64,000 nt of DNA from Rubripirellula sp. (GTDB lineage: Bacteria; Planctomycetota; Planctomycetia; Pirellulales; Pirellulaceae), in assembly GCA_965216875.1 (NCBI GenBank), contig OZ244207.1:4128001-4192000 (forward strand). Direction: 5' to 3'. Below, in pieces: positions 40,701 to 49,700 of the stretch. Position 1 is the stretch's first letter; every line of letters begins with the position of its first letter. The position numbers are program-made.

Positions 40701-43700
40701 GACCGCCTGGAAGTGGGGTCCCGCACTCGCTGCCGGCTGCACGATCGTGATGAAGCCGGCCGAACAGACACCACTGACCTGTTTGCGTTTGGCGCAAATG
40801 GCACAAGACGTTGGCATCCCTGACGGTGTCATCAATGTCGTGCCCGGGTTTGGCCCCACCGCTGGCTCAGCCGTTGTCAAACACCCGCTCATCGACAAGA
40901 TCGCATTCACCGGCGAACACCGCACCGCTCAAACCATCACGCGTGAATCGGCCGACACGCTCAAACGCCTTACGTTTGAACTTGGTGGCAAGAGTCCGAA
41001 CGTGATTTTCGCCGATGCCGACTTGGACGCCGCCGCAATGGGCGCCTACATCGGCTTGTTCCTTAACCAAGGACAATGCTGCTGTGCCGGCAGCCGCGTG
41101 TTTGTCGAATCAAGCAAGCACGATGCGTTCCTTGAAAAACTGCAAGCCTTGACCGTAAAACGAAAAGTGGGCGACCCGTTTGCCGCCGACACCGAACAGG
41201 GCCCGCAAGTCGACAAGGCTCAGTTCGACAAGATCATGTCGTACATCGACAAAGGAAAGAATGAAGGTGCCAACTGCGTTGCCGGTGGCAATCGCGTCGG
41301 TGACCAAGGTTACTTCATCGAACCAACCATCTTTGACGGCGTAAACGACAGCATGTCGATCGCGACCGATGAGATCTTTGGCCCGGTGCTGAGCGTGCTG
41401 ACGTTCGACGACAAAGAAGACATGATCCGGCGCGCCAACAACACGTTTTACGGATTGGCGGCTGCCGTCTGGACTCGCGATATCTCGACCGCTCACGAGT
41501 TTGCCAAACGCGTTCGAGCGGGAACAGTTTGGGTCAATTGCTATGACGTGTTCGACGCAGCGGCACCGTTCGGCGGCTTCAAGATGAGTGGCTACGGACG
41601 TGAGCTGGGCGAAGAAGGCCTCAAGGCCTACACCGAAAGCAAGACGGTCACCATCGCGCTGTAAGCGAGATTTATGAACGAAACGATCACGCAAGTCGCG
41701 GAACAACAATTCCAGTTCATGACAGCCCTGCCGTGGCTGTTGTTGGTGACGCTGACCCTGCCATTGTTGGTCGCGGCAAAGATGAAGATCTTTCCGACGC
41801 TGATTTGGTGCGGGTTGTTGGGGCTGTCGATGTTCGCCAGCTTCATCACCATCTTCCAACCTGTTGGCCTGGTCTTTGTCCTCTCTCTCGACTTGCTGAT
41901 CGTGACGGTGGTTGCGATCGATTTCTTGCTCGTCTTCTTGACGACCAACCGAGGGATCGAAGTCCATCGCGAGATGCCACGAACCTGTTCGCTCGGCGTT
42001 CCGCTCGAAAGTGAACTCACAGTCGAAAACCGGACGCCGCTGACGCTGCGTGGTTCGGTTCGTGATGACTTACCGCAAAACTTTAGAACATCGCCCGAGG
42101 AGCACCGCCTTTCGCTTCCACCAATGGGGCGAATGACAGCTGTTCGAAAGTTGACCCCCGGTCGCCGCGGCGCGTTTCAACTCGAGCATGTCTACTTGCA
42201 GTTCTACAGTCCGTTGCGACTGTGGACGCGTCACCGACGGCTCGACTTGCCACACAAGTTGAACGTCTATCCCGACATGAAGCAGCTTTCCGACTACGCG
42301 TTGCTTGCACGCACGAATCGACTCAGTCTGATCGGTGTGCGTCGGACACGACGCGTTGGCCAGGACAGTGAATTCGAACGCTTGCGTGACTACACGCGAG
42401 ATGACAACTACCGGCACATCGATTGGCGAAGCACCGCGCGGCGCCGAAAGCTGACCGTCCGCCAATTCCAAAACGACCAAAGCCAGCGCGTCATCTTTCT
42501 GCTTGATTGCGGTCGCATGATGACCAACGAAGCGGGTGGTTATTCGCTGCTTGATCACGCACTCAATTCAACGCTGATGATGGCGTACGTTGCGTTATCG
42601 CAGGGTGACTCGGTCGGAATGCTCTGTTTTTCGGACACGATCCATTCGTACATCCCGCCGCGCGGTGGTGCGAGCCAAATGAATCGGTTGATCCAAGCGG
42701 GCTTTGACCAATTCCCACGCTTGGTTGAATCACGCTATGACCAAGCGTTCCTTTATCTGTCATCCAATTGTAAACGACGTTCACTCGTCGTCCTGGCAAC
42801 CAACGTGATCGACGAAGTCAACGCGGCGTCGGTGGTTGACTACCTTGGCAACATCAACGGACAACATTTGCCACTTGGCGTGCTGCTTCGCGACCGAGTG
42901 ATGTTCGAGGCGGCCGATTCACCCGATGGCGATCCCTTTCAGATGTACCGCGCCGCCGCCGCGGCTGACATTCTGTTGTGGCGTGACCAGATCGTCAAAG
43001 ACCTGCAACACCGCGGCGTTCTCGTCGTCGACGCTTTCCCCGACGAATTGACAGCGCCCCTGGTCAACCAATATCTCGAAGTCAAAGCCAAACACCTGCT
43101 TTGAGCATCCACGCCACGTGAGCCGAAGGCGCTAGCCTCGGGCCACAGATACAAAGACGAAAGGCCCCTGACAAGCACGGCCACGCAAGGCCCGACGCTA
43201 GCGCGTTCGGCTCACGATTCGTTCGTAGTACCGCCTTTAGGCGGAAGAGCATGCAGATTCCGGCAAAAGCCGGTACGACGAACGGTTAATTGGAATTCGG
43301 TCTCAATCCGGCCGTGGTGGCTCGGCGGACGGGTTGGCGGTTGAGGTAGCCGCGGACCACTTCGTCATGACGAATCCCGAGCTGCGATCGCGAAGACTCC
43401 GTTTTCCCCTCGGGCGCGACCACCAGCACTGCGTTCTGTTGCCAAGTTTGCTGGAAATGCGATGCCGAAATCCGCAGGTTTCCTCGCAGCGGGTCCGCAA
43501 GGAAGACGCATCCCGCCGCAACACCTCGATAGACGACAAAATGGTTCGTCCCGCCGATATCGACAACGACAATCAAAGGCACTTTGCTGCCGGTAAGATC
43601 CGCAAACGAAACCTCGCCGACGCTTGCCAAGAACCCCATCTCCTTTGCCGCATCCGAAACATCAGCCATCGTCAGGCCTTCGCGTTCGCGGTCACGTAGC

Positions 43701-46700: not shown

Positions 46701-49700
46701 ACGACGCAACCCACAACAAGTCGCGGTTCGGCAAAACGCAACCTTCTGAATCGAAAGTCAAAGACCTCAAAACCCGAACCAATCCGTCGGGCGCAATCGT
46801 TGCGAACAGGCAAGTTTGCCAGTCAGAGAGGCTTCAGAATTCAGCTGCGGGTGCCCGGTGCAAATCCGTTCAGGCACGAACAAAAAAAACGGGCCGAGTC
46901 GTATGACTCAGCCCGCTTTGCGTAAACGAGGGTGATTTATGGATGCTCGCCCAAAGCATGAAATGCCTGAGATGGGCTAGAAGCCACCAGCAATGGAGAA
47001 ACCACCAGCTGCCGAAACGTTGAACCCGGATCGGGCACGCGAGAAGTTTGCTCCCGCTGCAAAGCTGCGTCCGCGGAAACGGTAGCCATTGGCCGACTCG
47101 GAGTAACCATTGCGACTGGTCGCGTAGGCGTAGGAACGTCCCCAAACCACGCCACCTTGTCCTCGGATCTGCGAGCTTTCATTGCGGTCCATCGAACGCA
47201 TACCGCTCAATCCCATCGCGCTCAGGGCGTTACTACTGATTCCCGAGTCGCTCGTTGTACGGAACGGATCGGCAGCATCTGCCTGGGTAGTAATCGTCAA
47301 CGCCAAAGCAACCGCCAAAACACCTAACAGTCGATTCATCAAAGCACCTCGTCTTGTCTCAAGCAGGGTCTCCCGATGGTTGTCACCACCAAGGTGAGCA
47401 ACTCCTCAGAGAGGGGGAGCCGAATACCTGCCCCATTAAAAGCACCGCCCCAATCATCGTCAATCATTTATTCTCAATAACCGTCAAAAACCACGCCGTC
47501 CCTAAATGCTTTTCAATCGATCTAAATGTACATCTGTCGGCTGGCCGTAAGTGGGCAACAAAGAACGGCTTGCTGTACGGCATTTGATTAGGGGATTCAC
47601 GGAGATCGTTTGCAGCCCACAACGGTTCCTGACCGGTCACTTCATTGAGGCTCGGCTGGGATTCCGAGACTTTCAAGCTCTTCGTTGCCACGGGCAAACA
47701 GCCGCAAGAAGGTCGTGCGATGATGACGAAATTCGTCGGCAAACATCTCACGATCGGACGCGTACTTGCTCTCCTGGATATCGACGATGATTTTGCGCAG
47801 GCAATCGACCAGCAGCTCTTTTGCTTCTTTCTGTTGTCCGCGCTGGCACCAGATCTCCGCAAGGATGCTCATCTCCTCACATCGGTGCGCACTATCAAGT
47901 CCGTCACGAAGCTTGAGACAAAAACGTTCTGCATCATCGCTCAAGCCAACCTTGTAAGCGGCCGTCCCGAGCTTGCCGTAGCCAAGGTTGTGATCCCAAT
48001 GAGGCGAGAATGTTTCAATCAGTTCGGTGACATGCGCTGTCGACTTGCCCGATCGCTCACCCGCAGCATCGATCGCAACCAGCGCGTCGACGTATTCATC
48101 AAATCGATGTCCGACAACGCTAAAACTATCGAGCGTCGCTTCTCGGACCGACTCATCTGCATCGCCAACAAGCTCAAGGAAACGTTGATAGACACGGACG
48201 ATCGTTTCTTCCTTATTCGTGCCGTTGACTTCGACGCAAGCATCGACGTAACGATCAAAATGTCGTGCCAACAAACTATGACTGCCAAGTAGCTCTTCTT
48301 GTCGCTGAGGGTTTGCATCGCCCGCTTCGGACATAAACCGTTCGTAGGCTTCGATGATCGCCGCCGACGTGGGAACCGACTCTTGCAACTCGAGATGCTT
48401 CCGTCGGTCGAGCTCATTCTCGAATCCCAACAGCTGGCGTCCAATGTGGATCATGAGAAGCGCCCGTGCGTGCGTGCCTTCCGGCTGCTCAGTCGCCGGA
48501 TACCATCGACTGCGAGGCCCATCGAGCACGACCCAACCCTCTTCCCCGCCGCATTGAGCCGTTGCCAAGGCAACGAAATGGGAGGCGATGCCCAACTTTG
48601 GTGAGACTTCGGCGACGGTCGTCAGGTTTGCCGCTTCAAGCGTTTCGCCCTGCCACTGACTGAGCATTCCCGCGTATTCGTCGGCATCGTCCACATCGTT
48701 TTCATCGATCAGCGAAGCGTATTGCATCTCCCAGTAACAGTGGATTGCGTACACGTCTTCAGGAGGCCGCTGATGCATCTTGTAAGTGAAGAAACACCAA
48801 GTGGCACTTCCCACCAACCCTGCATCGACATCATCAGCCTCGAGTCCCGTTTGGTCTCGCATTCGATATCGAATCACCCAGAACGGTCGCAACTCGCGGT
48901 CTGGGGGCCAAGCGAGTTGCCGGTGGTCAACAATTTCCAACTCATCGGGTGCTTGCCCCAATTCATTCGGGTGCGCCAACCATTGCGAAAAGGCGGCCTT
49001 GGCCCGAAACGTGTCGTCTTGTGAATCGTTCGGAATCAAATCCTCGCGATCCAGTTCGGCCAGATAACGCGTCGCGACATCGCTATGGTTCACATCAAGA
49101 CAGTATCTCGCGAGGACCTTCAATCCTGATTCGCGTCCAAGTTTTCCCGCCGCCCAAGCCGCTTCCAATTGCACCGACGTATCGGCATGATCCATCGCCA
49201 GTGCCAGCAACTGGTCACGCGCAGGATTACTGATGAAGGGCAGTGCTGCGGTGGCACTGTGCGCGTAACTTGACTCACTCTCGTCAGGATTCTCCAACCA
49301 CTCGCGCAGCATCTGCCACCCCGCGGGCGAATCAAACGGATGGTCATCAAGTTCGCCTGCGATGGCTGGACCGTTGGCCGCATCAAGCAACGCGATCGCG
49401 AGGAAACCCTCGGGCAGCGGGTCACTCAGTGCCTGAAAAAGGTCATCACGATGCGGATGGCCGTCTGAGTAGATGCCTAAGATGACGTGCCAAAGGTATC
49501 CATCGGGCGCAAGCGGCAACTTTGCGGATGCGATGACTTTCTCGGTACCCGCGGGCGCACCGTACATCGCCAAAATCTTCAACACGTAAAGTAAGTCGCT
49601 CGGGTCGTCTTGATCAACCGTTTGCATCAGTTCATCAAACATGCGAACAAGTTCTGGCAGTCCCTCGAGGTAGAGCACTTCATACGCGGGAACGTCCGTA

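Follow-up and report, generated by a model that had tools for sequence, protein, structure and literature searches.

A minimal module related to Fap and Fil export systems in Pirellulales, with a leader-tagged small secreted protein as candidate cargo

Organisation of the locus

The window analysed here is a stretch of 64,000 nt from a Rubripirellula genome (contig OZ244207.1, positions 4,128,001 to 4,192,000). Four open reading frames on the minus strand were recovered at the limits given in the initial annotation, which had assigned them to a FapF-like pore, a C39 peptidase, a second β-barrel protein and a secreted protein of 120 aa. No further gene, and none resembling an immunity or modifying gene, was found within this four-gene locus.

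The small gene (46977–47339, minus strand, ATG at 47339) encodes the putative cargo, which consists of a signal peptide, a pro-segment and a β-rich tail; its parts were delimited with 43 aligned family members. The Sec-type signal peptide (residues 1–22; 47274–47339) was recognised by eye from the sequence by its basic start, hydrophobic core and A-x-A motif, and A22 is conserved in at least 90% of the members. In the pro-segment (residues 23–61; 47157–47273) a helix with the motif L39-x3-G43-L precedes the leader core, as judged from a position table, held-out leaders and the helices of the structural model. The leader core (residues 50–61; 47157–47192) is of the FilA/FapE type and ends with R59-G60-Q61. 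Cleavage most likely occurs after residue 61, that is, after R-G-x, and would release a mature passenger of 59 aa (46980–47156), for which the model and residue counts predict four strands in antiparallel arrangement, Gly, Ala, Ser and Asn making up one of the faces.

Directly 3′ of the small gene lies an intrinsic-terminator-like hairpin with a U-tract (46886–46919, minus strand; −25.9 kcal/mol, z −4.7), and none of 200 shuffled sequences was equally stable. Across loci, such hairpins were found for 49 of 64 small genes versus 15 of 39 barrels, 9 of 31 pores and 9 of 30 peptidases. A search for sigma-70 promoters at the locus gave none. One run that was only guessed to be RNA yielded a single identical 262-base contig (47152–47413) covering the 5′ part of the small gene, a weak hint of transcription; two other runs guessed to be RNA yielded nothing.

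The second outer-membrane β-barrel (45416–46459, minus strand, 347 aa) is of the Lpg1974/Legionella_OMP (BBP7-related) type and has long terminal loops rich in Gly, Ala, Ser and Thr. It scored 0.96–0.98 against Atlas clusters of PF05150/PF07585, and 15 of 91 homologs match PF05150. The FilD model did not match it, and a PDB sequence search with the barrel profile returned nothing. The last loop comprises 32–41 aa in the 32 barrels of the locus set. The idea that barrel loops are sequence copies of the tail of their own cargo was rejected, since tails did not score higher against the barrel of their own locus than against other barrels (z mostly below 2).

The FapF/FilC-like outer-membrane pore (44011–45270, minus strand, 419 aa) matches PDB FapF 5o67 over its barrel (residues 157–412, E 3.5e-15). 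As noted before, it also matches the NCBIfam FapF model below cut-off (E 7.5e-18; 64.5 bits versus an equivalog cut-off of 700), so that it can be called a homolog only. A coiled coil on the periplasmic side is not evident; a crude heptad score assigned this element to 10 of 12 comparator pores but to none of 26 planctomycete pores. The gene for the stand-alone C39 peptidase (43286–44023, minus strand, 245 aa, with a signal peptide according to its sequence) overlaps the end of the pore gene by 13 nt. The peptidase matches PF03412 with an E value of 1.1e-20, and its catalytic residues (Q68, C74, H161, D177) are invariant in 28 aligned rows. Its scores against the NCBIfam models for FapD (103 bits, cut-off 330) and FilB (85.7 bits, cut-off 475) are below the thresholds, for FilB by a wide margin. 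In a quick tree of 105 rows, with Fap and Fil labels assigned from gene layout, all 50 planctomycete rows fall on one branch (SH-aLRT 90) and Fap plus Fil on another (92), which suggests that these peptidases form a branch apart from FapD and FilB.

The leader and the tail of the small protein family

The small protein matched no Pfam or NCBIfam family (best Pfam E 0.13), as had been observed earlier; Pfam searches with 20 family members gave nothing, including no curlin match, and a PDB sequence search with the family profile gave no match. The closest Atlas clusters are unnamed Planctomycetota proteins. The gene is present in a single copy in the window genome, again in agreement with the initial annotation. 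Elsewhere the family can be multi-copy, with up to six rather than the previously claimed five paralogs at one locus, and 11 matches in one genome. Among four positions that had been called invariant, R59 and G60 are so in 43 rows, but L39 and G43 reach only at least 90%.

The end of the pro-segment had been described as a C39-type cleavage motif. In the canonical double-glycine leader, positions P12, P11, P8, P4 and P2 form the consensus register. The planctomycete leaders keep this register but do not end in a canonical site: P1 is Gly in 1 of 43 leaders and otherwise Gln, Glu, Lys or Met, P7 is Gly or Ala instead of Leu, and none of 44 held-out leaders combines GG or GA at P2-P1 with Leu at P7. 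What stands of the claim is a variant of the FilA/FapE leader. The V/I-R-G at P4-P2 is kept in all 44 held-out leaders, and conservation in the 43-row alignment drops directly after these positions. A leader profile matched FilA (E 6e-4) and FapE (E 0.013), both in register, at low match probabilities (28% and 3%, respectively); controls gave E values of 0.43–0.85. We also built a matrix from planctomycete leaders alone and scored with it 44 secreted proteins defined by their position next to C39 genes outside the planctomycetes. Relative to 1359 control proteins, 19 of these lay above the 95th percentile and 12 above the 99th. When the leader profile was run on 6370 ORFs, the only two non-planctomycete matches were secreted proteins encoded just upstream of a C39 gene. 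A strict Fap/Fil leader pattern fitted none of 42 leaders, a longer pro-segment HMM matched at none of five comparator loci, and a weak test on 8000 candidates revealed no longer or fused leader-bearing proteins. From these comparisons the novelty of the family, proposed earlier, appears to lie in the additional helix and the tail, but not in the leader.

The structural model reproduced the earlier prediction of pro-helices followed by strands, with two helices and four strands (pLDDT 73, earlier 68). The predicted tail is an antiparallel meander that turns tightly in the middle and varies in its outer loops. No fold match was found (best Foldseek E 0.34, best VIA Z 3.7). The tails, nearly free of Cys in 43 rows, are not simply hypervariable as had been stated, and some of them are not β-like.

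One family member carries five curlin-like repeats with a period of 23 residues; this was the case for 1 of 67 tails screened. It matches the NCBIfam CsgA model (E 1.2e-6, 28.6 bits, cut-off 160) and is the only CsgA-like match in its genome. CsgG was found neither in this genome (97% complete, 520 contigs) nor in the window genome, while the control was positive in 4 of 14 genomes. A PDB search with the curlin-like tail gave no CsgA match; a model predicted from the single sequence was of low quality (pLDDT 46) and matched no known fold. The likeness to curli lies in the repeats of this one member, and the tail of the window protein itself has neither curlin nor Fap repeats.

Distribution and relation to known export systems

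Among 251 genomes of the order Pirellulales, the pore was found in 47 and the leader family in 47, with 46 genomes common to both (12 families). The small protein family was present in 41 of 42 held-out pore-positive genomes versus 1 of 204 pore-negative ones. This supports the earlier view that the small proteins are the likely cargo of the exporter, and we consider this link very probable. Within the family of the window genome, Pirellulaceae, 23 of 200 genomes carry the pore (17 of 150 in the earlier count), 24 the leader and 22 both. In one of the two leader-only genomes a C39 gene lies at a contig end, and the match in the other is an unrelated reductase-like protein; in one pore-positive genome no small gene was found. 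Since a sample of 400 genomes across the phylum gave no match outside this family, the observed distribution covers the order Pirellulales and not, as suggested before, the Planctomycetota as a whole. The cultured strains Bremerella cremea and Novipirellula galeiformis carry the module, which is complete in the former. Gene content at 29 fetched pore loci (C39 in 28, barrel in 17, small family in 20) agrees with the previous survey of 20 loci (20, 11 and 14), and the linkage holds across strand flips. Nine of the 29 loci have no small gene nearby.

The locus shares with Fap a FapF-type pore, a stand-alone periplasmic C39 peptidase with catalytic Cys, His and Asp, and a Sec-exported cargo with what appears to be a FapE-like leader. 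It differs from Fap in the pore without coiled coil, the peptidase outside the FapD branch, the order of the genes (pore before peptidase), the extra barrel and the predicted four-strand meander of the cargo. The initial annotation had described an exporter that lacks FapA, FapB, FapC and FapE. For FapC and FapE this was supported. The FapC model matched neither in the window genome nor in Bremerella; in both Pseudomonas controls it exceeded the cut-off and gave additional weaker matches just upstream of FapC. FapE was not found either, with both controls above the cut-off. FapB could be judged only indirectly. The resemblance to FapE is confined to the leader. According to the parts of the literature available to us, FapA is dispensable and pairs consisting of fapD and fapF only have already been reported (PMC6173800).

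The Fil cluster of the Acinetobacter type (FilA cargo, FilB C39, FilC pore, FilD barrel, FilE, FilF), regarded as a putative pilus system, was not considered in the earlier annotation. It has a leader-bearing cargo, a C39 peptidase, a FapF-like pore without coiled coil and a second barrel, and FilA gives the best leader match of the planctomycete cargo. By gene content the module is at least as close to Fil as to Fap. However, the second barrel is of the Lpg1974/BBP7 type here and of the FadL type in Fil, and the peptidase lies outside the Fil branch. The likeness to FilA is in the leader only; the FilA model found nothing in the window genome or Bremerella and gave matches below cut-off in both Pseudomonas controls. 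With the double-glycine/PCAT systems (class II bacteriocins, microcins, cyanobacterial EbfG1-4) the module shares the C39 fold and the leader register. It is distinguished from them by a peptidase that is not fused to an ABC transporter, by the Sec signal in front of the leader, and by P1 and P7. EbfG1-3 and some microcins form amyloid, according to the published portions considered. Our literature search brought up no description of a Fap-like module, or of this cargo, in planctomycetes; the order may be listed among groups with fapD and fapF only in Fig. S1 or Supplementary data 1 of PMC6173800.

Proposed export route and alternative explanations

We favour, with a probability of about 0.6, a minimal export module of the Fap/Fil type that forms a third lineage and delivers a leader-tagged, β-aggregating cargo to a surface fibre. 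This model builds on the observed identities of pore, peptidase, barrel and cargo, on their linkage, and on the leader homology, the curlin-like passenger and the terminators. As suggested by their signal peptides, Sec would carry all four products through the inner membrane. Once in the periplasm, the small protein would retain its 39-residue pro-segment, the last 12 residues of which serve as leader. The C39 peptidase would recognise this leader and probably cut there. The unfolded β-rich passenger would then leave through the FapF-like pore and polymerise outside into a β-sheet fibre or matrix, a fate that we regard as likely, with slightly less confidence than the cut. The small gene product would be a separately terminated and probably abundant structural subunit, and the leader would be portable, carrying different passengers including the curlin-like one. 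The second barrel, a usual partner, may act as membrane anchor or nucleator, which is the weakest step. Several observations count against the model. P1 and P7 are unlike those of characterised C39 substrates, no leader fits the strict Fap/Fil pattern, the match probabilities of the leader profile are low, and the longer HMM failed at the comparator loci. The tail is predicted as an antiparallel meander, in contrast to the parallel solenoid of CsgA and FapC, and is free of curlin or Fap repeats in the window protein; the curlin-like tail is a single case with a poor model, some tails are not β-like, and tails show no sequence resemblance to the barrel of their locus. Finally, small genes were missing near 9 of 29 pores and from one pore-positive genome of the family.

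The non-canonical P1 and P7 would also fit a leader that serves only as docking or anti-aggregation signal for the same cargo and exporter. The peptidase would then hold the cargo without cutting at R-G-x, or cut another component, and the pro-segment would be kept or lost elsewhere. For Fap, the available parts of the literature report that FapD catalysis is required for FapC secretion and that FapE loses its N-terminus (PMC5557850); they leave the substrate of FapD open, with a chaperone role or cleavage of FapF considered (PMC5557850, PMC6173800). The strict conservation of P4-P2, the drop in conservation directly behind these positions and the invariant catalytic Cys, His and Asp make docking alone rather unlikely. 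Marginally less plausible still is a cargo that acts like a microcin, as an antibacterial or pore-forming peptide, with differing paralog tails as an arsenal for competition, possibly also self-assembling. The bacteriocin-like register and the small Gly/Ala/Ser-rich products, with many copies in some genomes, would agree with this, and class II microcins are described as both killing and forming amyloid in the portion available to us (PMC13188072). However, the window locus has no immunity-like or modifying gene, tails are nearly Cys-free, one passenger is curlin-like, and the literature considered here links the related Fap and Fil systems with fibres or pili.

The four predicted strands, tightly turned in the middle and variable in their outer loops, the small residues on one face, the C-terminal Phe of the window protein and weak shape matches that include autotransporter anchors (Z 2.2–3.0) could also point away from an exported fibre, with the tail contributing its strands to a small oligomeric barrel in the outer membrane in the way known from the anchors of trimeric autotransporters. 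This appears improbable. The large face of the tail is 42% aliphatic or aromatic and 11% charged, versus 75–79% and 0–2% in the last strands of the two true barrels; a C-terminal Phe is present in only 7 of 43 members, a curlin-like tail occurs on the same leader, and a BAM-inserted barrel would need no FapF pore. That the pore is a COG4313-type channel for uptake of small molecules with unrelated neighbours, as a weak PF13557 match (E 7e-4) and a PTG-like motif in 21 of 31 rows might suggest, is very improbable in view of the adjoining C39 gene in 28 of 29 loci, the co-occurrence with the leader family (46 of 47) and the fact that the parts of PMC6173800 considered mention no C39 partners of uptake pores.

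Extending the export model, we tentatively propose, as a possibility well short of an even chance, that C39 plus FapF provides a general route for export across the outer membrane, in which the leader acts as address and passengers can be exchanged. Its product in Pirellulales might be an undescribed filament of four-stranded antiparallel β-meander subunits, nucleated on extended hairpins of the Lpg1974-type barrel; one lineage would have captured a curlin passenger without CsgG, and the small protein would be a subunit of some planctomycete cell-surface fibres.

Judged from their sequences, these aquatic planctomycetes appear to possess a reduced machinery related to that by which Pseudomonas exports amyloid, along with a so far unnamed small secreted protein family whose common tag resembles the one of established fibre proteins. 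How FapD recognises its target and what it cuts is left open in the literature available to us, and a module of three to four genes with one 120-aa cargo, a sharply conserved leader and cultured hosts makes this directly testable in a simple system for how a Fap-type machine picks and cuts its cargo. A single leader rule would unite Fap, Fil and a third lineage, and the leader may provide a portable tag for the export of aggregation-prone proteins. For the planctomycetes themselves, the small protein is a candidate subunit of their surface fibres.

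The four-gene locus and its distribution

The module is encoded on the minus strand in the order small secreted protein (46977-47339), second barrel of the Lpg1974 type (45416-46459), FapF-like pore (44011-45270) and C39 peptidase (43286-44023). It is flanked by a convergent DUF58 gene on one side and a HEAT-repeat gene on the other, and does not differ from its flanks in GC content. The pore matched the solved FapF structure (E 3.5e-15), while its match to the NCBIfam FapF model was far under the model cut-off. The peptidase matched PF03412, as well as FapD (103 bits) and FilB, the peptidase of the Fil cluster (85.7 bits), the latter two under cut-off; all 28 homologs compared keep its Gln, Cys, His and Asp. 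By sequence, the second barrel (843 relatives at E ≤ 0.001) groups with the Lpg1974/Legionella_OMP and BBP7 barrels. No named family was matched by the small protein in Pfam, NCBIfam, Atlas cluster and PDB profile searches. The predicted signal peptides of the module proteins were called by reading the sequence.

Directly after the peptidase gene lies a short, REP-like intergenic repeat (43184-43285) with about 130-260 blastn matches per position within the genome and a read-depth spike in one sequencing run. At 50136-63238 (minus strand) an MbtH/luciferase-like gene adjoins a 3960-aa megasynthase, by eye of acyl-AMP ligase/PKS/NRPS type with a FabH-like end.

The four-gene Fap-like module claimed by the initial annotation proved to be real and tightly linked. 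A pore homolog was present in 23 of 200 genomes of the family. Of the 29 loci around pore matches, 28 contained a C39 gene, 17 an Lpg1974-type barrel and 20 small-family genes, the latter with up to six per locus and frequently on the opposite strand. In five loci (L050, L052, L054, L056, L058) the barrel beside the pore is not of the Lpg1974 type but a different one, which from a motif we take to be BBP7-like; four of these loci seeded its profile. A signal-plus-leader profile built from 43 members matched 24 of the 200 genomes, 22 of them shared with the pore set. One leader-only genome has a C39 gene at a contig end and the other is a false match; in one pore-positive genome this profile found no leader. 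Across 251 genomes sampled from the whole order, pore and leader were each found in 47 genomes and together in 46, spread over 12 families. With the five genomes that supplied profiles left out, the leader occurred in 41/42 pore-positive versus 1/204 pore-negative genomes; no P-value is given, because related genomes are not independent. In a phylum sample of 400 genomes, two of them from this family, the leader was confined to the family and the pore had one weak match elsewhere. The module is thus restricted to the order in the samples searched. Bremerella cremea, Rubripirellula, Bythopirellula and Lacipirellulaceae bins are among the named carriers, and the small protein is also present in Novipirellula galeiformis.

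Leader genes were also seen on stretches in which no pore or peptidase was found (L099, L101, L102, L104, L108, L109, L114, L206, L207), often in tandem and several on short contigs; some have very short aromatic four-strand tails. Pore, barrel or peptidase genes split over two frames or ORFs (L059:8634-10054, L034:9885-11000, L043:9808-10710) are assembly errors or decaying copies.

Leader of the small secreted proteins

In the small protein the signal peptide is followed by a helix with L-x3-G-L and a 12-residue core: M/V/L/A, S, D, x, E/Q, G/A, x, x, V/I, R, G, and finally Q/E/K/M. The invariance of R-G in the first leader set is by construction, since R-G served as selection pattern; among 44 additional members recovered with a profile, P3 (counted back from the inferred cut) was Arg in 44/44 and P7 was Gly or Ala in 44/44. 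Compared with the double-glycine consensus, five positions agree, and P7 and P1 differ.

FilA (over cut-off) and a FapE-like protein (E 2.3e-12) show the identical register directly after the signal peptide, and three tests support kinship of the planctomycete leaders with these. A matrix from planctomycete leaders alone was applied to 44 secreted neighbours of non-planctomycete C39 genes, chosen by position, and to 1359 control proteins: 19/44 scored above the 95th and 12/44 above the 99th percentile of controls, a few top-scoring windows falling outside the leader. Aligned with post-signal segments, the leader profile reached E 6e-4 against FilA and E 0.013 against FapE, both in register and with low probabilities; four controls lay at E 0.43-0.85. 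Among 6370 ORFs the profile had just two non-planctomycete matches, both secreted proteins upstream of C39 genes. Two results count against kinship, however: the pro-segment HMM had no match in five comparator loci, and 0/42 planctomycete leaders fit the strict Fap/Fil pattern, the latter because of P7.

Passenger tails and possible expression of the small gene

In the model of the small protein (pLDDT 73, pTM 0.45) the leader forms two helices and is followed by four strands, each 11-12 residues long; fold searches gave no structural match for it. Within its subfamily the four-strand frame is conserved and the outer hairpins vary. Gly/Ala/Ser/Asn make up 87% of one face of the tail; on the other, 42% of residues are aliphatic/aromatic and 11% charged (positions picked after the pattern was seen). 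The latter face is less hydrophobic than those of the two true barrels, whose last strands reach 75-79%. Such an open sheet should self-associate.

Other family members carry different tails behind the leader. In one (L037:6730-7338), next to a complete module, the leader is fused to five 23-aa curlin-like repeats (CsgA match, E 1.2e-6). This is the sole CsgA-like match in its genome (G072), in which CsgG was not found; it represents 1 of 67 tails screened, and its model is too poor to confirm the fold.

A strong predicted terminator ends the small gene, and terminator-like hairpins follow 49/64 small genes versus about one third of machinery genes, which would fit a structural subunit that is overproduced. 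In a run that may be RNA, one identical contig (47152-47413) covers the 5′ part of the small gene and 74 bases upstream, a weak hint of its expression; no contig covered the barrel, pore or peptidase genes.

Relation to Fap and Fil and a possible export route

The Pirellulales module seems to work like Fap and Fil but belongs to neither. Membership is denied because FapC, FapE and FilA were not found in the genome searches, in which controls were positive, because the planctomycete pores lack the FapF coiled coil (0/26 versus 10/12 comparator pores in a crude test), and because the peptidases branch separately. A rapid tree built from 105 peptidases, with SH-aLRT values alone as branch support and group labels assigned by us, placed 50 planctomycete rows on one branch (90) and Fap together with Fil on another (92); one Pirellulales row sits among other minimal modules. 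Such minimal C39 and FapF-like modules with short leader-bearing cargo were seen at L146:2656-3147, L145:7341-7634, L148:6796-7596, L150:5443-5874, L151:5901-6311 and L163:5203-5514, in Verrucomicrobiota, Alphaproteobacteria, Methylococcales, Thermodesulfobacteriota and Acidobacteriota bins; the L146 cargo tail consists of a Gly/Tyr/Asn repeat. In the tree, the peptidases of these modules fall between the planctomycete and the Fap/Fil groups. Excerpts of published work name Fil a type III pilus (PMC8792954) and report fapD and fapF to be colocalised in another five phyla (PMC6173800).

Most likely, the small protein would cross the inner membrane by Sec, the periplasmic C39 peptidase would recognise the leader and cut after R-G-x, and the passenger would leave through the FapF-like pore and form a beta-polymer outside the cell. 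The second barrel, which has long terminal loops of small residues (32-41 aa), might speculatively anchor the polymer; no sequence tie between barrel and tails was found. According to excerpts of PMC5557850, FapC secretion requires the FapD cysteine and N-terminal peptides of FapE are missing; the FapD substrate is not settled in the excerpted text of PMC6173800. ABC-type routes for small leader-tagged proteins that form an amyloid matrix are described in parts of PMC4997328, PMC9981879 and PMC13188072.

Literature searches found nothing on this cargo family, and a review from 2025 refers to fibres and pili of planctomycetes in its excerpted text without the word 'amyloid' (PMC12673574). The Pirellulales module appears to be a Fap/Fil-type variant with an unnamed cargo family, and it would offer a testable leader rule.
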